Shown here: in pieces, positions 567-13,239 of the stretch
Numbering within the stretch: the stretch's first letter is position 1
Layout of the letters: every line of letters begins with the position of its first letter
Source of the DNA: an uncultured Clostridia bacterium
Lineage (GTDB): Bacteria; Bacillota; Clostridia; Oscillospirales; Ruminococcaceae
DNA: 32,000 bases
Assembly (NCBI GenBank): GCA_947383835.1
Contig: CANDEV010000018.1
Coordinates: forward strand, 1-32,000
Direction: 5' to 3'
Position numbers and translations under genes: made by a program
The notes under the pieces: model-generated
Databases searched by the model: none
Told to the model about the DNA's origin: nothing
What the model saw: only the letters and a program-made list of their open reading frames with translations

Positions 567-2885
567 TCAGCCTCCCTCCATTCTGGTTTTTTCGCCCTGA
601 TAATTTATGACGACCTCGCCCACGGGCTTGCCGTCAAGGTACGCCGTGGTCTTGCCCGTAACGTCCACGGTAACGTACACTTCCATAGGCGCAGCGTCCG
701 AAGCAGTTTTGTAATTTTCATAATTTTTATTTGTACCGCCGACCTGTATCTGAGTATAAAGCGCACCGATGTCAAGCTCTTTCATAGCCGCGTTGAAGCC
801 TGCGGAAAATTGCTGTGCAGTCTGCGCGCCGTAATCGTATGCTGACGTTGCCAAGTCCCCAAGCGCGCTCGTCATGCTGTCGGAAATAGCCTGCGCTTCG
901 TCCTTGTAAAGGTCGTTCGCAAGTTCGTCGGCAAGCTTCTGCTTCTCGTTATAAAGCTCGTTGATCTTTGCAAATTCCTCGGCGGACATTCCGGAAAGAT
1001 ATTTCGCGAACTGCGCGCTGTCCTCCGAACCGAGAGAAGTCAGCTCGGCAAAAAGTCCGTCGGACATACCCTCCGCACGAAGCTTCTTGACAGCGGAATT
1101 ATACTCCCGCATTTTCTTAAGCTGCGCGTCAATGTCGTTGACTGTGTAAATAGTTTTCTTCTGACCGTTTTCGTCCTCTTCCTCGGTCACGGAGAATAAG
1201 TCCCCGCCCACGGACATAAGCTTGTCTCGGTAGCTTTGCCGTTTTTTCTCCAACTCATCATAAGCGTCCTGATACCGCTTTACGATCGCCGACAAGCCGT
1301 CGTCAACAAGCTTTTCCTGTTCGTCAAGGGTCTTTTTGGTAACGTCCAGATTATCTTCATAGACTTGCTTCAGGTACTGATAATTTTCGTCGGTAATGCC
1401 CTTGCCCGTGGTAATATCCGCGTCGCCGTAATATTTTTTTACGAAATCGGCGCGAGCTTGGATAGCGTCCTCGTCAGACAGCAGACCAAGAGTGTTCAGA
1501 CGGTCGATGTTCTCCCATTCGGACTGACGGGCGGCGACCTGCTCCGCGGAAGCCTTTTTCGCGGCTTCTTTGGCAGCCTCAGCAGCCGCTTCCGCTTCCT
1601 TTTGGGACTTCTCGGAATAGTCCTGCTGATAACCGTATAAATCCTCATAATACTTCCAATGCTCCTGCAAATCTGCATTGCCGTACTGACTTAGCAGAGC
1701 GGATTTTCTTGCGTACAGAGCCTCCTCGGAAGCGATAACGCCTATGGCGTACTCATGCTCGGCTTGCTCCCATGCTTCTTTTAAAAGAGCTGTGTTTTCG
1801 GCTTGTGCGTCGGCGAGCTTTTGGGAAGCTTCCAGCATAACAGTAGTGTAATTTGCGGCATATTCTTCCGCAGCCATTTGCTGGGAAGATTTATAACTGT
1901 CACTTGCGTCAACAGAGTTTTGTGTAAGCAAATTTTCATAATCAGCCATATCCTGTGCAGATTTATCCATAAGCTTTTTATTTTCGCCGTATGCCTGCCA
2001 AGCCGATTCCCAAACGCCTTGAGTATAATCTTTTTGATATTTAACATACTCCTTAACGCTCATGCACATTTCGTCGGCTTTCCTTTTGGTTTCAGCCGTG
2101 AAATTATTTACTCCGCTATTGAATTTGTCGTAATCTGCACGAGCTTTTTCGTAAGCTTCGCTCGCGGCGAGAGCGTTTTCATAAAGCCCGTCATTGGCTG
2201 CCGAGGTCTCGTCATAAGTAACAATAGCTGTTTTGTAAACCTCACGCTTTGCTTCAATAAGTGTTGTCTTACGCAAGTTTTCAATATATCCGTTAATTGA
2301 AGCTGCAAGGTCATTATATCCTTGTATCTGACCGTTTATAAGTTCGATCTGTTCGGGATATATTTTGTTAATTTCCTCAACAATTGCTTTGACTGTTTCG
2401 TAACTACCCGTAATTCTGCCATTTTCGTCAACGTTTTCTGCAAGCTTGCTTTTAAGTGAGCTTAAAGTGGATATTTCGTCTTCGCGGGAGGAGATCATTT
2501 CCTCGGATTTTTTATTTACATCTTCGTAAGCGTCGGCAAGTTTTTTTATCGCCTGCTGCTGTTCGGCGTAAATCTCGCTGCCTTTAGCCGCGGCTGCATT
2601 TAATTCTTTGTGGCGGTTGACAGCAGAGGCTACAGCGGCGACATATATTCCGCCGATAACTGCCGCAACTGCCGTGATCGGGCTTATAAGCATAGCTGCC
2701 GACATAGCGGCGTTTGCTTTTGCCAATGCACTTGCGGCAACGGAAGCTCCCCAAGAAGTAGCTGTATATTCCTTGAGTGCAACGCTCATGCCGCTTATGG
2801 AGGCTGTGTGCAAAATATTTGCAGCCGCAGCCGCTCCTGTTGCGGTTTCATAAATAACCATTGCAGAGCCTACAGCTATGAGCAC
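567..2885 (-). CDS. Phage tail tape measure protein, probably 5'-truncated.
   Basis: 772 aa. Gly/Ala-rich hydrophobic segments are followed by a long Glu/Lys/Ala coiled-coil-type sequence, typical of tape measures. The first start is GTG with no Shine-Dalgarno, and the frame stays open upstream to 2999 without a start codon. Confidence 0.7.
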   Translation of the reverse strand: MLIAVGSAMVIYETATGAAAAANILHTASISGMSVALKEYTATSWGASVAASALAKANAAMSAAMLISPITAVAAVIGGIYVAAVASAVNRHKELNAAAAKGSEIYAEQQQAIKKLADAYEDVNKKSEEMISSREDEISTLSSLKSKLAENVDENGRITGSYETVKAIVEEINKIYPEQIELINGQIQGYNDLAASINGYIENLRKTTLIEAKREVYKTAIVTYDETSAANDGLYENALAASEAYEKARADYDKFNSGVNNFTAETKRKADEMCMSVKEYVKYQKDYTQGVWESAWQAYGENKKLMDKSAQDMADYENLLTQNSVDASDSYKSSQQMAAEEYAANYTTVMLEASQKLADAQAENTALLKEAWEQAEHEYAIGVIASEEALYARKSALLSQYGNADLQEHWKYYEDLYGYQQDYSEKSQKEAEAAAEAAKEAAKKASAEQVAARQSEWENIDRLNTLGLLSDEDAIQARADFVKKYYGDADITTGKGITDENYQYLKQVYEDNLDVTKKTLDEQEKLVDDGLSAIVKRYQDAYDELEKKRQSYRDKLMSVGGDLFSVTEEEDENGQKKTIYTVNDIDAQLKKMREYNSAVKKLRAEGMSDGLFAELTSLGSEDSAQFAKYLSGMSAEEFAKINELYNEKQKLADELANDLYKDEAQAISDSMTSALGDLATSAYDYGAQTAQQFSAGFNAAMKELDIGALYTQIQVGGTNKNYENYKTASDAAPMEVYVTVDVTGKTTAYLDGKPVGEVVINYQGEKTRMEGG

Positions 2886-3020: not shown

Positions 3021-3584
3021 TCATTCCTGCCCCGCCTCCGTTATTTCAGATTTTTTACTTTCCAAATAATCCGAAAGCTGTTTGTACAATGTCGGATCAT
3101 CATGGGCAAGCCCCGTGAAAAATTTATCCTTGACCGCGTCGAAGCCTGCTTCTGAAATATCCTTGTTCTTCAGGTCGAGATTTTTCTTGTATGCCGCAAC
3201 GCGTATCAGTTCGGTAGCCTGCTTCATTAATTTAAGCGGGTCGGTACTTTGCAGATCGTTCTCATCGAATTTAAGCACACCGTCAAGAATTATATTTGAC
3301 AGTATTTTTATAATGCCCTCGGTGGTGTCCAAATTCGGGTATTTATCAAGCTCGCGGGAGATCGCCTTAAAATTTTCCTGTGCAAGCCGCAGGGACTGAA
3401 TAGACTGATTAAGCCGCGAAGCGTACCGCTGAATTGACGAGTAGGAAATTTCAAAGCCGACGTTCTGCACATACTCCACGATCTCGCGGTATTTAAAATT
3501 TGCCTTTATCATTTCGTCAACGGTATTTCTGACCTCTTCGGGGAAATCATTTATTTTAGGGTGACTTCGATTTCCTGTTTTCAT
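3021..3584 (-). CDS. Mu gp27-like protein (DUF3486 family, putative small terminase subunit).
   Basis: N-terminal pattern KINDFPEEVRNTVDEMIKANFKYREIVEYVQNVGFEISYSSIQRYASRL matches the gp27/DUF3486 HTH-like N-terminus. Start moved to ATG 3584, which sits behind a GGAGGA. Confidence 0.6.
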   Translation of the reverse strand: MKTGNRSHPKINDFPEEVRNTVDEMIKANFKYREIVEYVQNVGFEISYSSIQRYASRLNQSIQSLRLAQENFKAISRELDKYPNLDTTEGIIKILSNIILDGVLKFDENDLQSTDPLKLMKQATELIRVAAYKKNLDLKNKDISEAGFDAVKDKFFTGLAHDDPTLYKQLSDYLESKKSEITEAGQE

Positions 3585-3592
3585 AAGTCCTC

Positions 3593-3919
3593 CTAAATGT
3601 CTATGCACGGATCGCTGACCGCCCCCGCAAGAAGCTGTATACCCTTTGCGGTAAGCTTGCCCTCAATTTCGTCCATAGGATAATCCGCAAGCTCCGCAGG
3701 CTTTTGAGTGTCAACATGGCGTATGCGGATATATTCCGATTCGATAAGATAATTCACGCTGTCGGCGAAATCGTCAGCGTCAAGACCCAGCGCGGAGCGA
3801 ATAGAGGATAATTTATTAAAATCGGTGCGGAGCATATTTATCCCACGCAGGACTTTGCCATTATTCTCAATAAAATTCGCTGCACGGGCTTTTTTCATCA
3901 TTGTTTCGGGATTCATCAT
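3593..3919 (-). CDS. Hypothetical phage protein (108 aa).
   Basis: ORF with AAGGAGG 6 nt before ATG 3919. ATGA overlap coupling with the upstream gene. Confidence 0.6.
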   Translation of the reverse strand: MMNPETMMKKARAANFIENNGKVLRGINMLRTDFNKLSSIRSALGLDADDFADSVNYLIESEYIRIRHVDTQKPAELADYPMDEIEGKLTAKGIQLLAGAVSDPCIDI

Positions 3920-4312: not shown

Positions 4313-4642
4313 TTAAATTTTTATGTCATCATCAAAAAATGAGGTTTGCCCCGGGAGTGGAGCAGCCTTGACAGCTTTCAGAACAGGAGAGATAATTCGG
4401 CGGATAGAGATTTCCGAAAGATTGAATTTTTTAGCAAGGTCAAGATAATTGTAACCGTTAAATTCTTTCCGAATTTGTTCGTCGCGGACGTTCGCCGTTA
4501 TAGTGTCGGGCTTGCAGACATAAATATATGAGCCTGCATAATTCCGCAGTAAATTTTTGTATGCCTCAAGCCCGATACAATCCGCAAGCTGCCGCTGCTC
4601 CTCGTCTAAATCCTCCAGCGTTAATTTTTCAAGCAGGCTCAT
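4313..4642 (-). CDS. mor: Mor/C-family transcription activator.
   Basis: C-terminal motif RDEQIRKEFNGYNYLDLAKKFNLSEISIRRII is the Mor-family HTH signature. The size (109 aa) and the position after the GemA-like gene also fit. Confidence 0.75.
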   Translation of the reverse strand: MSLLEKLTLEDLDEEQRQLADCIGLEAYKNLLRNYAGSYIYVCKPDTITANVRDEQIRKEFNGYNYLDLAKKFNLSEISIRRIISPVLKAVKAAPLPGQTSFFDDDIKI

Positions 4643-4658
4643 TTTATCACCCTTTCAT

Positions 4659-4916
4659 TTATAATAAACTCATTTGAACATAATCGCAGGGGATTTCAGA
4701 ATATCCCTCACGGGGCTGATATTCTTTATCGGTAAAAATATCAATGCCGCAAAATCCAAAATACCTGCAATGATTTACCGATTTTGCTTTTGCCGCGGAA
4801 TAAAATATCCCGTTTCCGTTATCACCGCAAGGGGCGTTTGCAAAGCATACAAAATCAGTCCCCTCGCCGTTGTAGTCCTCTGCGTGCGAACAGTATCGGC
4901 AGTACTGTTTAATCAT
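4659..4916 (-). CDS. Small Cys-rich phage protein (putative zinc binding).
   Basis: The ORF contains CRYCSH ... C ... C ... C. Start moved to ATG 4916 behind GAGGCGGAAG; the upstream ATG 4946 has no ribosome-binding site. Confidence 0.5.
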   Translation of the reverse strand: MIKQYCRYCSHAEDYNGEGTDFVCFANAPCGDNGNGIFYSAAKAKSVNHCRYFGFCGIDIFTDKEYQPREGYSEIPCDYVQMSLL

Positions 4917-4968: not shown

Positions 4969-5409
4969 CTAAATAAGCTTTTCGCCGTCCTTAAATGATA
5001 CCCACCTAAAAATATCCTCACCCGATTTTGCGGTAATTCCGCAAATTTTATGTATCGCCCCCGCCATGCGTTCCCCAACGGTAAAGGGCTTGCCGTCCTC
5101 ATGCAGCATGGGCTTTTCGTCCAATTCCCGCAGATGGTACATATACCGCCATGCGAGGGACTGCTGCTCCGTTGTCATCATACCGGCGACCGCAGGCTTG
5201 TAGGCTTTGGGACTGCGTTTCTCGGGCGGTTCGGGAACGCTGCCGCACCGCTTGCGAAGCTCGCCGATCACAGCCTCGGTCTGACTGTCGGTAAGCTCCT
5301 TGGTGGACTCCTTACCCGTCAGCCCGAAAATCAGAGCGCGGCGGTCGTCCTCGCTCATTCCGAGACTTTTGCACATTCCAAAAATCGTCTTGCGCTGGGT
5401 TGTTGTCAT
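4969..5409 (-). CDS. gemA: Mu gp16/GemA-like regulatory protein (DUF1018 type).
   Basis: TTTQRKTIFGMCKSLGMSEDDRRALIFGLTGKESTKELTDSQ matches the GemA N-terminal pattern. AAAGGAGGA lies 8 nt before ATG 5409. Confidence 0.7.
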   Translation of the reverse strand: MTTTQRKTIFGMCKSLGMSEDDRRALIFGLTGKESTKELTDSQTEAVIGELRKRCGSVPEPPEKRSPKAYKPAVAGMMTTEQQSLAWRYMYHLRELDEKPMLHEDGKPFTVGERMAGAIHKICGITAKSGEDIFRWVSFKDGEKLI

Positions 5410-5441
5410 TTTGAAAATTCCTCCTTTATCTTTATTAAATC

Positions 5442-5470
5442 TTGACAATTGCTTTTATAAATTGTATAAT
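5442..5470 (+). promoter_or_regulatory. Consensus sigma-A/sigma-70 promoter of the moron.
   Basis: TTGACA (5442-5447), 17-nt spacer, TATAAT (5465-5470), about 30 nt upstream of ATG 5503. Confidence 0.65.
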
Positions 5471-5502
5471 TTTTATAATTAATATTATTAGGAAGTGTTA
5501 TA

Positions 5503-6252
5503 ATGTCAATTATATTTCCATTTGAAAAATGTCCTTGTGGAAGTGAAAAAACGTTTATTAATTGTTGCTTTAAGCTACACCATAAATACCAAAAAATTTA
5601 TCCTCCAAATAAAACAATAACTAAAAACAAATATTTGGTTATTGATAAAACCCTTTATACTTCGTATATTTCTGAAATCCGAAATTTTTTAAATTATCAC
5701 ATTACTCAAAATTTGCAAACAAATCTAAAAGATTATGCCAATCTTTTATTCTATATAGATAAAATAATGGATATGATATATCCGTATACAGATTGCCATA
5801 AAGGTTGCGATTATTGCTGTTATATGAGTGTTGCCATATCAGAATTTGAAGCCGACTACATTAAACAGTACGTAAATAAAAACTGGTCTAAAGAAGAAAA
5901 AAATAAACTTCATTCCAAAATAAAAAAATTAAAGCGTGAACATATAGAAATATTTAACCCTGTTTTTTTGGCAACTGAAACACATACACAAGTTCGCGTT
6001 CCGTGTATTTTCTTAAAAAATGGGTGTTGCTCTATTTATCCCTGTAGACCTACAATATGTAGAACTTATGTATCTCTAACACCTTCAGAAATATGTCATG
6101 ATGTTCATTTTAATCCTAATTCAACAAATGTTACTGTAGAAATGGATATCTTAAATGACGTAAGAAATCAACTATTTGAATTTTTTTCCTCACAGGCTCG
6201 TAATATTCAATGGTCTTGTGCACTGCCATTTTGGTTTGATAAATTCAAATAA
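5503..6252 (+). CDS. SEC-C motif plus YkgJ/UPF0153-type (CxxxCxxCC) cysteine-cluster protein. A prophage moron.
   Basis: N-terminal CPCGSEKTFINCC. Central CHKGCDYCC and CIFLKNGCCSIYPCRPTICRTY. It is the only plus-strand gene inside the phage operons. G+C is 18/60 in 5521-5580 versus 42/60 in 5221-5280 (hand count). Confidence 0.8.
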   Translation: MSIIFPFEKCPCGSEKTFINCCFKLHHKYQKIYPPNKTITKNKYLVIDKTLYTSYISEIRNFLNYHITQNLQTNLKDYANLLFYIDKIMDMIYPYTDCHKGCDYCCYMSVAISEFEADYIKQYVNKNWSKEEKNKLHSKIKKLKREHIEIFNPVFLATETHTQVRVPCIFLKNGCCSIYPCRPTICRTYVSLTPSEICHDVHFNPNSTNVTVEMDILNDVRNQLFEFFSSQARNIQWSCALPFWFDKFK

Positions 6253-6258
6253 GCATTT

Positions 6259-6597
6259 TCACGCCTTTACCTGCAAAAGCCACTTTTTAGTACCCTCTGC
6301 AATATTTTTAATATCGGAAATATTTTTGTCTGTAACCATAACGACCCCGCGGAATGGATAGCACCGATAACAATTATTCCACTTTTTCAGATCGTACACA
6401 AAAATAGGCTCATATCCGCCAATATTCACGCCCTCGGAATGTACTTTATTATATATCTCGGGGGACAGCCACAGCCGTACAAATTCGGATATTTCATGAC
6501 GGATCGCACGAGCCTCATCGTCGGTCTTGGTAACAATAAGCACCCTGCTTCTGATCGCAGCGCACAGTACCTGCCGTATAATTCTGCCTGTCAGCAA
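6259..6597 (-). CDS. Hypothetical phage early protein (112 aa, TTG start).
   Basis: AGGAGGCGG lies 4-7 nt before TTG 6597. Same strand as the operon. Confidence 0.55.
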   Translation of the reverse strand: MLTGRIIRQVLCAAIRSRVLIVTKTDDEARAIRHEISEFVRLWLSPEIYNKVHSEGVNIGGYEPIFVYDLKKWNNCYRCYPFRGVVMVTDKNISDIKNIAEGTKKWLLQVKA

Positions 6598-7420: not shown

Positions 7421-7580
7421 AATTTTTCTCCTTTTTATATCGTGTAATTGTTTTTCGAGTTTTCTTATTATAAAGCTCCATTGTGCCGTCGGTCTCCTTT
7501 ACTACAAGGAAATTATCACCGTTTAAGCCAAATCCGCTGATAAGAATTTTTTGCCGTCTTGTGGGGCGGGTCGCTCTCAT
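7392..7580 (-). CDS. Small basic phage protein (62 aa).
   Basis: ORF with a 4-nt overlap with the MuB-like stop. RPTRRQKILISGFGLNGDNFLVVKE resembles small proteins common in Firmicutes mobile elements (from memory). Confidence 0.45.
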   Translation of the reverse strand: MRATRPTRRQKILISGFGLNGDNFLVVKETDGTMELYNKKTRKTITRYKKEKNYEIHSKFKS

Positions 7581-8746
7581 GCTGCCGCCTCCTCTCTGAG
7601 CCGCTTGATAATGCCGCCGATATTGGTTAAACGGAGGTTGCCCATTTGCGCAAGCTCTGCAAGCCGCTCTATGCCGACATTCCCGCCGTCCATGTTGTAA
7701 GCTGTACTGTAAAATTTTATCGCGCGCCGTATACCCTCGCCGTTGGTTTGGGCAATAGCATACAGAAATTTTATCTCGGCATTTTTCTTTTGGGAGACAA
7801 GCTCGGGGAACAGCAGCTTGATGTCCTCGATCTTAATGTCCGCCGCCTTGATGTACGGACGGAGATTAGCACGGTTGAAAACCTGCCCCGTTACCGCAAT
7901 TTTCTTTTCGTCAAAGTGCCGCATAAATGAGGGATTGCCCACAAAGCAAACGCCCATTGTCTCGCCGCGGTCGGTAAAAATATCGGATATGCTCCGCAGG
8001 TGGTCTATGGCGGGAAATTTAAGGTGCTGCGCCTCGTCAATGATTATCAGCATACCGTCATGAAGCCTTGAAACCACTGCGGAATTAAGGTCGTGCAGCC
8101 TGTTTAAGCCGTTTACTCCAAGCTGCGCAGCAATTAATTTCATAATGCCGATAACTGAGCTGTCCGCATAAGTAGGGGTAACGACAATGGTATTTTCGGG
8201 ATAGTCGGCGGCGTACTTTGAAATGGTGCGGGACTTTCCCACGCCCGTGTCCCCTGTTATAATTTCGCATTCTCCCGCGATATGTACGCCCCTGATAACC
8301 TGATACATATACTCCGAAATGGAGGTCGGCACGTACTCCGTACCCTTGTATATCTGCGCCTTTTTCTCGGCTTTAAGGGTCAGATAGCTTGCGAAATTTG
8401 CAAAGATCTGCTGAATGTCGCCGCGGTACTTGCAATTCCTTATGTCGGATATTGTGCTGCCGCTTGTGCCTATGGCGGAAGCCGCCATGCTTGCGCTGCC
8501 GCTCTCTACAATAAACCACTCCAGACGTTTGAAAAGCTCCCGCTGTTCGCCTTGGTAAAATTCATACGCCTTGGGTCTTGAAAGCAGCAGGCTTTCTATT
8601 TTCTCTGTGTACGTGGCTTTTTCGCCGTTCAGCGCGCTTTCCACAAATTTTATGGGTACGCCTGCCAAAATTGCCGCGCCTTTTTCGCCGAATTCATTTA
8701 CCAATTCCGCATATCCGCCGCGGATAGCTTCTAAATCAAAGCTCAT
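7577..8746 (-). CDS. MuB-like AAA+ ATPase (transposition target-DNA activator).
   Basis: Walker A GDTGVGKS and Walker B MLIIIDEAQHL. Located immediately downstream of the transposase gene. Confidence 0.85.
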   Translation of the reverse strand: MSFDLEAIRGGYAELVNEFGEKGAAILAGVPIKFVESALNGEKATYTEKIESLLLSRPKAYEFYQGEQRELFKRLEWFIVESGSASMAASAIGTSGSTISDIRNCKYRGDIQQIFANFASYLTLKAEKKAQIYKGTEYVPTSISEYMYQVIRGVHIAGECEIITGDTGVGKSRTISKYAADYPENTIVVTPTYADSSVIGIMKLIAAQLGVNGLNRLHDLNSAVVSRLHDGMLIIIDEAQHLKFPAIDHLRSISDIFTDRGETMGVCFVGNPSFMRHFDEKKIAVTGQVFNRANLRPYIKAADIKIEDIKLLFPELVSQKKNAEIKFLYAIAQTNGEGIRRAIKFYSTAYNMDGGNVGIERLAELAQMGNLRLTNIGGIIKRLREEAAA

Positions 8747-8749
8747 AAA

Positions 8750-10741
8750 TTATGCTCCTTTCGATTGCTCCTGAACGTCGTTGAGACGCTTCAGGTCTGC
8801 AAATTCAATTTTTGTAATATTCATGCCGCTTGCTTCAAATTCCTCCGCAATAACAGGGGTAAAGCTGTCGGGCTTAGCAATTTCGTAGCCCTTGGAATTT
8901 TGCTCCGCTCGGAGAAGCTCCGCCTTGAGCAGGGAAACAGCGTCGAATTTTTTATAGTCGTCAAGCTGCTTTTTGACAGCTTTTCGCGCTCTGCCCTGAC
9001 TTTGTATAGCTTTCTGTATATTTTCCTCGGACGCTCCTATAAATTGCAAATCAAGATGTTCCGCGCAGGGATATGTGTACAAAAATCTATCAGTGTCTTT
9101 TTCGTATACCTGTACCTCGCGCAAATTAATAGGATCAAACCTAACATATACTTCCTCATCAATATGAAATATCGAATTATCGTCTTTATACCATATTTTT
9201 CGTCCAGCCCATTCGATAAAAACACCGTTCCGCTTGATTTTCTGTATTTTGGTAGTGCGCCGCAAAAGCAAGTTAAGATTTTCTGCGTCGGTGGTGCGAA
9301 GTTCAATATCTCCCGCCCGCACAGCCTCATTCCAAACTTCAATGCGTTTCATATTTTTGAAACGTTTTTCCTTGCCGCCGTAAAGCTCGCTGTTGTGTCC
9401 CTTGATAAAGATTGGGAGAATTTCCCGCAGCTCCTCATCGGTGATAAGCTTCCGCTCCTTTACAAGCTGCTTGCACTCCTCGGGACGCTCATCGGGCTTG
9501 CCGCCGCAGTAGCTTTCCACCGATTTTGAGTAATGCTCCTTGAAAGTGTAGAAAAATCTTTCAATAGGCTTTGCTTTGGCGTTTTTGGGAATGGCATTTG
9601 TTACTGATATGCCAAGCAGTGAAAATATTTGAACAGGGTGTTCTTCTTTTTGCCAACTTGATTTTTTTCGGTGTCCGCGTCCCGCAAGATCGCTTGCGCA
9701 GAATTCCGAACCGTTATCGAAATATACGCCTATCGGTATTCCATAGCCTTGAAGTATTGCCGACCGCAGTGCAAGACGTGTAGTGTCCGAATTTGGGTGG
9801 TCGCAAAGCTCCGCCGCAACAATAATGCCGCTTTTGGCTTCTTGAAATGTGGTTATTGACGGGCGGTGTACCTCGCCGTCGTCCGAAAGCGTGAAAAAGT
9901 CCAGCGTATGATTGTCAGCTATCCAAATATCATTGCATTTAAGGGTACTTACATCACGCTCCACATATTCGAGATACTTATCCATAAATGCCTTTTTGCC
10001 GAATCGTCCATACTCCAAAACTGCATGAGGAATTTTCTCAACATGGCGGCGGAACGTCCTCGATGAGGGAATTCCGTCCACAAGCTCGGGGTAGTATTCT
10101 CTGCATACCGCCACCGCCTTTGCATAGCAGTTTTCTATAGTAAGGCGGTGCGTTGTGAGGTAGTAACTTGTGAAAATGCTCCAGACCGTGTCGTCAATAC
10201 TGCACTTGCCCTTATTCCACCCGCCGCGGTTCTCAACAAGCCCCTGAAAATCGTTGTTTCGGTAAGCTCTGTATTTGCGGTACAAAATATCGGGAGAAAT
10301 GTCAATATCGGGATGTTCTAGCTTGACCTTGCCACAGAAAAGTGGATCCGCCTCGGTCTTGTTCTTGAATTTGGAACGCGCCGCCTGCCACTCCTTGAGG
10401 ATACTGCACCATAGAGCAATCTGCTCCCGTTCCGCTTCGGTGAATTCGTCCAAACGCTTCTTTTGAACAGGCTTTTTAGCAGCCTTAGAATGCCGTTCTA
10501 ATGGCGTTTCCTTAAGTTCGGGCTGTAAGCCAAGCTCTTGTTGTTTCTGCTTATAGTACCTCGCTTTCAACTCCTCGGGAAGCGCGGAAACGGGTACAAG
10601 AAATTTAGCTTTACCTTTGGAATTTAATTCCTCTTTAGCCTCAAGCTTACCCTTTGATACACAATTTTGTACGTACCTCTCACTACACCCTTTAAGCTCC
10701 GCCACTTCTTTTACTGTTAAATAATCCAAATAAATCCACAC
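8750..10741 (-). CDS. MuA-like DDE transposase (rve-type core plus N-terminal HTH).
   Basis: N-terminal LTVKEVAELKGCSERYVQNCV HTH. DDE core candidates WIADNHTLDFF, YFDNGSEF and KPIERFF. The real start is probably TTG 10729, 10 nt after GGAGG. Confidence 0.9.
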   Translation of the reverse strand: MWIYLDYLTVKEVAELKGCSERYVQNCVSKGKLEAKEELNSKGKAKFLVPVSALPEELKARYYKQKQQELGLQPELKETPLERHSKAAKKPVQKKRLDEFTEAEREQIALWCSILKEWQAARSKFKNKTEADPLFCGKVKLEHPDIDISPDILYRKYRAYRNNDFQGLVENRGGWNKGKCSIDDTVWSIFTSYYLTTHRLTIENCYAKAVAVCREYYPELVDGIPSSRTFRRHVEKIPHAVLEYGRFGKKAFMDKYLEYVERDVSTLKCNDIWIADNHTLDFFTLSDDGEVHRPSITTFQEAKSGIIVAAELCDHPNSDTTRLALRSAILQGYGIPIGVYFDNGSEFCASDLAGRGHRKKSSWQKEEHPVQIFSLLGISVTNAIPKNAKAKPIERFFYTFKEHYSKSVESYCGGKPDERPEECKQLVKERKLITDEELREILPIFIKGHNSELYGGKEKRFKNMKRIEVWNEAVRAGDIELRTTDAENLNLLLRRTTKIQKIKRNGVFIEWAGRKIWYKDDNSIFHIDEEVYVRFDPINLREVQVYEKDTDRFLYTYPCAEHLDLQFIGASEENIQKAIQSQGRARKAVKKQLDDYKKFDAVSLLKAELLRAEQNSKGYEIAKPDSFTPVIAEEFEASGMNITKIEFADLKRLNDVQEQSKGA

Positions 10742-11089: not shown

Positions 11090-11410
11090 TTAGGTGTTTG
11101 AATAAGCTTCGATACGCTGTCCCATTTGGATAAGAGCATTTTCATATTTAAGGCAGACTGAACAATACTCAAAATTGTCTGTCTCAATGTCATAGGTAAT
11201 TACATCATAGCGGTTCGCGTCATAACGGTTTGTAGGACAACTGTCTCCCTCATTGTTATTTCGTGGCGTATATGTTATACCAACGTAAAAACGTCTGTCG
11301 TCCTCGGCTGTCTTAGCATAGGCAAAGTTTACAAGCTCCTCTCCCTCTTTTTTAAGGTACTCCTCGACCTTGACCCTTGCGGTGATTTCGGGATTGTGCA
11401 TTACTTTCAT
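11090..11410 (-). CDS. Hypothetical early protein (106 aa).
   Basis: ORF in the early operon. AGGAGAAATTAAT precedes the ATG. Confidence 0.55.
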   Translation of the reverse strand: MKVMHNPEITARVKVEEYLKKEGEELVNFAYAKTAEDDRRFYVGITYTPRNNNEGDSCPTNRYDANRYDVITYDIETDNFEYCSVCLKYENALIQMGQRIEAYSNT

Positions 11411-13210: not shown

Positions 13211-13239
13211 TTGACTTTTGTAAAATATGAGGGTATAAT
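13211..13239 (+). promoter_or_regulatory. Near-consensus promoter pointing toward the prophage end.
   Basis: TTGACT (13211-13216), 17-nt spacer, TATAAT (13234-13239). Confidence 0.5.

Follow-up and report, generated by a model that had tools for sequence, protein, structure and literature searches.

Why does a Mu-like prophage in an uncultured Clostridia bacterium (Ruminococcaceae) carry, among genes otherwise transcribed from one strand, a single gene that points the other way from a promoter of its own? The gene lies within the 32,000-nucleotide (nt) stretch at the start of contig CANDEV010000018.1 (assembly GCA_947383835.1) that we analyzed (the whole stretch is called the window here), and it encodes a protein that joins a SEC-C-type metal knuckle to a YkgJ-type cysteine cluster. 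What is new here is a small clade of such proteins that is phage-borne where context is readable and that passes from one gut phage to another, unrelated one along with a consensus promoter of its own. We consider it very likely that the gene and its promoter form an accessory, self-promoted cassette. To the whole of the explanation that we favor, an exchanged moron encoding a modifying enzyme expressed by host RNA polymerase, we give a little less than an even chance.

A probably self-promoted gene opposed to the early operon

The open reading frame (ORF) occupies positions 5503-6252 of the plus strand, from an ATG start to a TAA stop, and encodes a soluble, cysteine-rich protein of 249 amino acids (aa; 15 Cys). 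Upstream lies a putative promoter (5442-5470, plus strand) that matches the sigma-70/sigma-A consensus at 12 of 12 positions: TTGACA at 5442-5447, a 17-nt spacer, and TATAAT at 5465-5470. No other perfect TTGACA-17-TATAAT site occurs in the window, where sites with at most one mismatch number three, against 0.27 expected from shuffled sequences. As read off the sequence, a ribosome-binding site (RBS), AGGAAG (5490-5495, plus strand), is positioned 7 nt 5' of the ATG. Promoter, 5' untranslated region, and ORF make up an 833-bp accessory cassette (5426-6258, plus strand) in which G and C account for 224 of 833 bases (27%); the ORF itself has a G+C content of 0.281, and of 0.196 at third codon positions, where 20 other phage ORFs range from 0.31 to 0.66.

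The first-pass annotation of this locus had described the only plus-strand gene within about 12 kb of minus-strand genes, placed between a GemA-like gene and an early gene of a Mu-like phage, 6 nt from its convergent neighbor, preceded by a perfect promoter and low in G+C. All of this stood up. Every other called gene between 153 and 12422 is on the minus strand; the stop of the cassette ORF (which ends at 6252) and that of the convergent ORF (which begins at 6259) are 6 nt apart; and even the hand-counted G+C values (18/60 in 5521-5580 and 42/60 in 5221-5280) are exact. Its description of the gene as a moron is likewise borne out by the consensus promoter, the foreign composition, and the absence of the gene from the same site in a related phage, described below.

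We detected no terminator-like site on the plus strand between 5470 and 6842, and an Rfam scan gave no match in or adjoining the cassette. Nor did we find a terminator within or just after the homologous cassette in locus L011, where the nearest one lies 376 nt beyond the stop codon. As we picture it, the cassette would be a self-contained moron composed of a promoter, an RBS, and one ORF, with no terminator. Host RNA polymerase would transcribe it without phage factors, leading to expression in the lysogen and also immediately upon DNA entry; for the lysogen, we infer this from the match of the promoter to consensus.

An empty site in a close relative and transfer among unrelated phages

Locus L034 is a related Mu-like phage whose identity to the window is 92% for MuA, 73% for MuB, 67% for GemA, and 69% for Mor. 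Orthologs of both genes that flank the cassette are present in L034, and a 174-bp GC-rich spacer is found in place of the cassette. The cassette is likewise missing from L054 and L055, which are Mu-like phages less closely related to the window. If this were an ordinary core phage gene and not an accessory acquisition, we could readily explain why two diverged Mu-like lineages (the window and L020/L026) have kept it at the same site, but not why it is missing from L034, L054, and L055, why its composition is foreign, or why unrelated phages carry it at different positions. We judge that explanation extremely improbable, and the empty site in L034 refutes it.

In L054, whose MuA is 43% identical to that of the window, the equivalent MuB-to-GemA interval holds a different opposite-strand ORF of 118 aa (4449-4805, minus strand); this ORF may be spurious, or it may represent another accessory gene of that region.

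A word-indexed search of 5.8 billion proteins yielded eight homolog clusters at 50 to 100% identity. Every cluster with readable genomic context is phage-borne, and so is every protein at least 50% identical to the window protein whose context can be read; homologs residing mainly as chromosomal housekeeping genes, which the first-pass annotation had named as the finding that would speak against a mobile gene, are not what we see among close homologs. Among 185,579 species genomes, matches were confined to two Oscillospiraceae metagenome-assembled genomes (MAGs), and tblastn against INPHARED phage genomes returned nothing at E ≤ 0.01, the matches that appear when the limit is relaxed to E ≤ 10 being noise.

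The phages that carry homologs are diverse. Two Mu-like lineages (the window and L020/L026) have the gene at the same gemA-proximal site, which was the position that the first-pass annotation had proposed to survey; other phages carry it elsewhere. These comprise a member of the Caudoviricetes of ∼117 to 124 kb with PolB, NrdD, and ligases (homolog DAW20612.1), another phage that resides in an Oscillospiraceae MAG and encodes TerL and an HK97-type capsid, a third that has DnaB alongside a phosphoadenosine phosphosulfate reductase-like gene, and a fourth whose polymerase is of the DnaE type (L024). That a ∼554-kb contig represents a megaphage is unlikely, because cluster members are found on many 117- to 124-kb contigs named Caudoviricetes sp. 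Uncultivated viral genomes that IMG/VR has cut from contigs of the Caudoviricetes type are 114 to 135 kb long.

When we compared flanks, the loci fell into about four (at least four) unrelated backbones. The flanks are unrelated, yet protein identity between backbones reaches 72%, which points to horizontal transfer of the gene. In every backbone, homolog genes have a G+C content of 28 to 33%, compared with 32 to 51% for their flanks, and in all of them TCTTGAC(A/T)-17-TATAAT and an AGGAG-type RBS precede the homolog. Between backbones, the −35 box is the exact point from which the DNA is similar. This pattern suggests that promoter and gene would be exchanged as a unit among phages of gut Clostridia (Oscillospiraceae), the copy in the window having come to lie between an early gene and gemA.

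An insertion sequence (IS) adjoins the homolog in L007 (8369-9915): it encodes a DDE_Tnp_1 transposase of 425 aa, has terminal inverted repeats GAGCAAAACACC / GGGGTTTTGCTC, and is located ∼20 nt upstream of the homolog's −35 box in the same orientation. We considered whether the homolog is cargo of this IS and rejected the idea, because neither inverted repeat (8369-8380 and 9904-9915) extends as far as the −35 box. A gene 99% identical to the L007 homolog is present in L049 with no IS.

The protein itself appears to be what selection maintains: dN/dS among phage-borne homologs is 0.11 to 0.24, so the protein is under purifying selection. The orientation of the gene is equally constant. In 12 of 12 loci it is the lone plus-strand gene amid minus-strand genes and convergent with the neighboring operon; we rejected this bias as decisive statistical proof, because by their flanks the loci represent no more than about four independent backbones. 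We propose that a strong promoter with no terminator would be tolerated only in antisense orientation, pointing away from downstream lytic genes, because a sense copy would drive them.

The same two observations, convergence and the missing terminator, could instead mean that the cassette acts in cis. Transcripts that run past the ORF should enter the early operon in antisense, crossing the 112-aa gene and heading toward MuB and MuA, and could thereby damp leaky early transcription and stabilize lysogeny, with the protein secondary. Such a function would leave the clear purifying selection on the protein and its invariant cysteines unexplained, as well as the existence of distant homologs that are ordinary chromosomal genes, and the same effect would be needed in the very different operons of different phages; we regard it as very improbable.

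Across phage contexts, the cassette gene is located in early, replication, DNA-methylase, or packaging modules. In the DnaE-type phage (L024, 12683-15365, minus strand), two adjacent ORFs carry matches to C-5 cytosine DNA methylase, Intein_splicing, Hint_2, and, weakly, LAGLIDADG; from their sequence, they look like an intein-interrupted or split methylase. An immediate-early role in counter-defence or host takeover could be drawn from such locations: the protein would be made by host RNA polymerase as phage DNA enters, before the phage's own cascade, to inactivate or modify some component of host defence or housekeeping. Its consensus host-type promoter is independent of phage activators, the gene sits within early, replication, or DNA-methylase modules in all backbones, and a ∼120-kb phage with its own replication machinery has it too. 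The protein resembles no known anti-defence protein, however, and anti-defence genes of prophages are not usually driven by a strong, unregulated promoter that has no repressor beside it, so we consider this role distinctly improbable.

A probably metal-binding member of the YkgJ superfamily

The YkgJ/CxxCxxCC domain spans aa 98 to 198 (5794-6096, plus strand) and presents cysteines as C98-x3-C102-x2-C105-C106, followed by C168, C176, C186, and C198. The window protein matches Pfam CxxCxxCC (PF03692) with 26.7 bits against a cutoff of 23 (aa 98 to 191, profile positions 2 to 71), and all 68 members of our alignment of relatives (A4) match this family. At the N terminus, the SEC-C-type knuckle (aa 8 to 23; 5524-5571, plus strand) consists of C10, C12, C21, and C22 in the arrangement CxC-x8-CC. 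Here the window protein scores 17.3 bits with Pfam SEC-C (PF02810; aa 8 to 23), which is just below the cutoff of 20.4, and it has E15 where relatives have G; yet 67 of 68 relatives match SEC-C at E ≤ 1 (best, 2.8e-11), and precomputed PF02810 entries exist for homologs P0002, P0004, and P0008. These matches support both domain assignments of the first-pass annotation. The databases had already arrived at similar descriptions for close homologs: "YkgJ family cysteine cluster protein" (MBQ5334046.1) and "Putative zinc- or iron-chelating domain" (DAW20612.1).

The cysteines are constant across the sequence alignments: the four knuckle cysteines and their CxC-x8-CC spacing are invariant in a 28-sequence alignment, and the eight cysteines of the YkgJ domain (C98, C102, C105, C106, C168, C176, C186, and C198), along with F170, R182, and P183, are invariant in 68 sequences, where an RPxxCR motif is present. 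A search of PDB sequences with the family profile picked up SecA and YchJ zinc-knuckle chains only (E, 0.04 to 0.08). We consider the protein very probably a metal-binding member of the YkgJ family. In our proposal, Zn or Fe would be bound at the knuckle, and an Fe-S cluster or a second metal center would be held in the YkgJ module. We found no hydrophobic or membrane segment in the window protein; most homologs are mildly basic (isoelectric point, 6.6 to 8.7).

One database entry, P0028 (108 aa), resembles the family over its first 56 residues and then continues as "...LLYTSDAADDPASV...CRLVGSEMCIRDS", a string that we take to be translated sequencing adaptor or contaminant; the entry is presumably a chimeric assembly artifact and no true variant.

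The first-pass annotation had called for structure prediction followed by a structural search. An AlphaFold2 model built on the 68-sequence alignment is confident and single-domain (predicted local distance difference test [pLDDT], 91.7; predicted template modeling score, 0.87), and supersedes an earlier model from a shallower alignment (pLDDT, 69.5). The structural search gave no significant neighbor: nothing scored below E = 0.49 when the earlier model was compared with PDB and BFVD and the later one with PDB. PDB searches found no solved structure for the YkgJ family.

The first-pass annotation had also regarded the fusion of the two domains as out of the ordinary in a transposable phage; in general, the fusion is not unusual. 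An exhaustive hidden Markov model (HMM) search places 6298 cluster representatives in the YkgJ/CxxCxxCC superfamily at E ≤ 0.001; about 46 of the best 150 of them, at 20 to 31% identity, have the full SEC-C + YkgJ architecture, as do 68 of 68 members of A4. The fusion is common and not novel. In the contexts that we read, these distant members (20 to 31% identity) occupy mostly ordinary chromosomal loci, one of which is syntenic between two clostridia. No conserved partner gene lies beside the cassette homologs or the distant members in the contexts read.

One distant homolog, P0012, does lie in an island, together with an integrase, a Macro domain, a PLD-family nuclease, and DUF6710, and this neighborhood bears on another possible role, that of a prophage defence or superinfection-exclusion factor made constitutively in the lysogen and blocking other phages, which was the role that the first-pass annotation preferred. 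A constitutive-type promoter and an accessory gene that is horizontally mobile among probably temperate phages would suit such a factor. Against it, a search of PADLOC-DB 2.0 gave no meaningful match (noise consisted of Cas8a at E 0.006 and E2 models at ∼5e-4 that covered the SEC-C knuckle of P0008 only); the protein has neither an effector domain (nuclease, TIR, Sir2, or pore) nor a membrane segment; the gene always occurs singly; and the distant homologs are, as stated, mostly in ordinary chromosomal loci. A defence role is quite unlikely on this evidence.

What the protein may do

In the literature that we found, a function is known for only two members of the YkgJ/CxxCxxCC superfamily, FliB and DpdM, each of which catalyzes an unusual N-methylation that depends on metal. 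The cysteine motif of Salmonella FliB holds an O2-sensitive [4Fe-4S] cluster that is needed for lysine N-methylation of flagellin, which depends on S-adenosylmethionine (SAM) (PMC8598068); FliB is the one case in the family in which binding of such a cluster has been demonstrated. DpdM, a YkgJ homolog encoded by phages, has a CxxxCxxCC motif, and two Cys4 sites are predicted in it; it is the DNA N-methyltransferase of 7-aminomethyl-7-deazaguanine (dPreQ1) in phage phiSM of Cellulophaga and phage VH7D of Vibrio and methylates the aminomethyl group of this base (PMC10516641). By our own generalization, both enzymes would thus methylate a primary amine of a macromolecule, a protein lysine in one case and a DNA base in the other.

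It is because the window protein belongs to a superfamily whose two characterized members are metal-dependent N-methyltransferases that we favor a modifying enzyme, which would work in the manner of FliB and DpdM, with the SEC-C knuckle serving as a docking element, for example, to ribosomes. Taken by itself, and by analogy with these two enzymes, the claim that the protein is a FliB- or DpdM-like transferase is possible but doubtful. A bolder version would make the phage-borne SEC-C-YkgJ proteins a third functional class of FliB/DpdM-type metal-cluster transferases, for methyl or other groups, which temperate phages that infect anaerobic Clostridia of the gut would carry on a portable cassette with its own promoter; they would modify a host macromolecule (a ribosome-associated protein reached via the SEC-C knuckle, or an amine-bearing DNA base) and so reprogram or protect the lysogen. 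We think this version unlikely.

The chief competing idea does without catalysis. The protein may be a redox or metal sensor, a regulator, or an adaptor, whose cysteine clusters sense O2, reactive oxygen species (ROS), or metals, or simply fold the protein, and which binds DNA, RNA polymerase, ribosomes, or another host protein and thereby tunes host or prophage physiology. We found no catalytic motif, and the mildly basic charge of most homologs would suit such binding. Phage WhiB-like Fe-S regulators and the SEC-C protein YchJ offer parallels: YchJ has the same N-terminal CxC-x8-CC knuckle and is reported to be an ROS-sensing transcription factor (PMC13377102), and a preprint describes SecA-like knuckles that bind iron and ribosomes (bioRxiv 10.1101/613315). 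In hosts that are strict anaerobes, an O2-labile cluster could also be an informative sensor. The window protein, however, has no recognizable DNA-binding domain in Pfam, and it lacks the YchJ core (UPF0225): its NCBIfam matches are limited to the knuckle, at 17 to 21 bits against cutoffs of at least 120. Moreover, both YkgJ-module proteins that are characterized in the literature we found are enzymes. We rate a sensor or adaptor as unlikely.

Several points weigh against the modifying enzyme and the cassette model that goes with it. Two characterized relatives are a thin basis for attributing one chemistry to a whole superfamily, and the cysteine module may have a role that is structural or regulatory and nothing more; we identified neither a SAM-binding nor a catalytic motif in the window protein. 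The FliB model was not among the NCBIfam matches (E ≤ 1) of the window protein and three homologs, and DUF3109, the family to which DpdM is assigned, matched neither the window protein (E ≤ 10) nor its 68 relatives. An hhalign comparison with VH7D DpdM gave a probability of 2.5% and aligned the cysteine motif alone. No flagellar or deazaguanine genes lie near cassette homologs in the loci read, and no structural neighbor in PDB or BFVD anchors a function; flagellin modification, another role suggested in the first-pass annotation, thus found no support. As for the cassette, its expression is predicted from a consensus match at the sequence level, and the bias in orientation, which reflects about four independent backbones, would arise by chance with a probability of ∼0.06 and is suggestive only.

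Whichever function proves correct, the clade is compact, strongly selected, phage-restricted, and equipped with its own promoter, which makes it a convenient experimental entry point to the superfamily. The single gene is presumably active alone, and its effect should show on expression. If the protein is an enzyme, a poorly understood chemistry would extend to phage-host interactions in gut anaerobes; if it is not, the cassette is an ordinary accessory gene.

Other features of the prophage

The Mu-like setting of the cassette, already recognized in the first-pass annotation, is defined by genes for the MuA transposase (8750-10741), a MuB-like AAA protein (7577-8746), GemA (4969-5409; PF06252 at 4.5e-11), Mor (4313-4642), and gp27 (3021-3608), all on the minus strand; phage structural genes are outside the window. 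The transposase is at most 43% identical to that of any deposited phage, and the closest named phage is Bacillus phage BalMu-1 (34.5%). The GemA-like gene is the divergent flank of the cassette, and a 112-aa early-region gene (6259-6597, minus strand), 41% identical to its L034 ortholog, is the convergent one; both are outside the cassette. GemA most likely starts at ATG 5409 and not at TTG 5448, the start of the mechanical ORF call, because MTTTQRK then aligns with MTASQRK of the L034 ortholog and because of an AAGGAGG site. This RBS is ∼20 nt from the −35 box of the cassette.

A match to the type II hammerhead ribozyme (RF02276; 11019-11087, minus strand) falls in the Mu-like early operon, where it separates a 106-aa ORF (11090-11410) from the transposase gene; it covers the full-length Rfam model with 47.9 bits against a gathering cutoff of 37 (E, 4.8e-7). 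Immediately after the gp27-like gene is a 772-aa ORF (567-2885, minus strand) with one weak INPHARED match (MT837006, 34%), nothing in Pfam or PHROG, and nothing convincing in PDB. The related Mu-like loci L034, L054, and L055 have no corresponding ORF behind gp27, and this one may be a second, same-strand accessory gene. Near the presumed left end of the prophage, a near-consensus promoter (TTGACT-17-TATAAT, 11 of 12 positions; 13211-13239, plus strand) has no ORF of at least 50 aa downstream; an RNA or a small gene on the repressor side could be transcribed from it. Position 1 of the window coincides with the start of contigs L001 and L002, which are independent assemblies from different samples that break within the prophage at exactly one shared base, at a distance of 5.5 kb from the cassette gene; this suggests a repeat or a strain-variable junction.

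Comparison with known systems

With the YkgJ family (PF03692; formerly UPF0153 and named "Fe-S-cluster containing protein" in COG), the window protein shares an HMM match above the cutoff, eight invariant cysteines in two halves, and the RPxxCR motif. It differs from the family in that a SEC-C knuckle is added at the N terminus, along with a helical linker, and the clade of proteins at least 50% identical to it has been found in phage contexts only, where these are readable.

FliB is a protein of ∼400 aa that is encoded in the flagellar regulon. Its cysteine motif is N-terminal and reads CX4CX3CC, and the protein is reported to be a membrane-associated oligomer (PMC8598068), whereas the window protein has a central Cx3Cx2CC motif and 249 aa.

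DpdM, like the window protein, is phage-encoded and has a CxxxCxxCC motif and three cysteines about 10 residues apart, with similar spacing (C92-x9-C102-x9-C112 in DpdM and C176-x9-C186-x11-C198 in the window protein). VH7D DpdM, which we located by motif scan (KC131129, 41694-42608), scores 16.4 bits on PF03692 over profile positions 2 to 71, the same part that the window protein matches. DpdM is assigned to DUF3109, lacks the SEC-C knuckle, and is not an antisense self-promoted cassette; it also adjoins DpdA and preQ1 pathway genes, none of which occurs within ±10 kb in any cassette locus read.

The SecA C-tail, YecA, and YchJ have in common with the window protein the CxC-x8-C(C/H) knuckle and its GSGKK core. 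In YchJ, the knuckle is N-terminal, as in the window protein (Cys5/7/16/17 versus C10/12/21/22). Only this stretch of ∼16 residues is common to them; the remainder of SecA, YecA, and YchJ is absent from the window protein. SecB, the classic partner of SEC-C, is largely confined to Proteobacteria and is an unlikely partner in Clostridia.

A final comparison is with the morons of lambdoid and Mu-like phages. The classical moron includes a terminator, whereas the cassette has none detectable, and the cassette is antisense in every locus seen. In several other traits the two agree: each has its own promoter and deviant composition, is present or absent at a fixed site, and recurs in unrelated phages.

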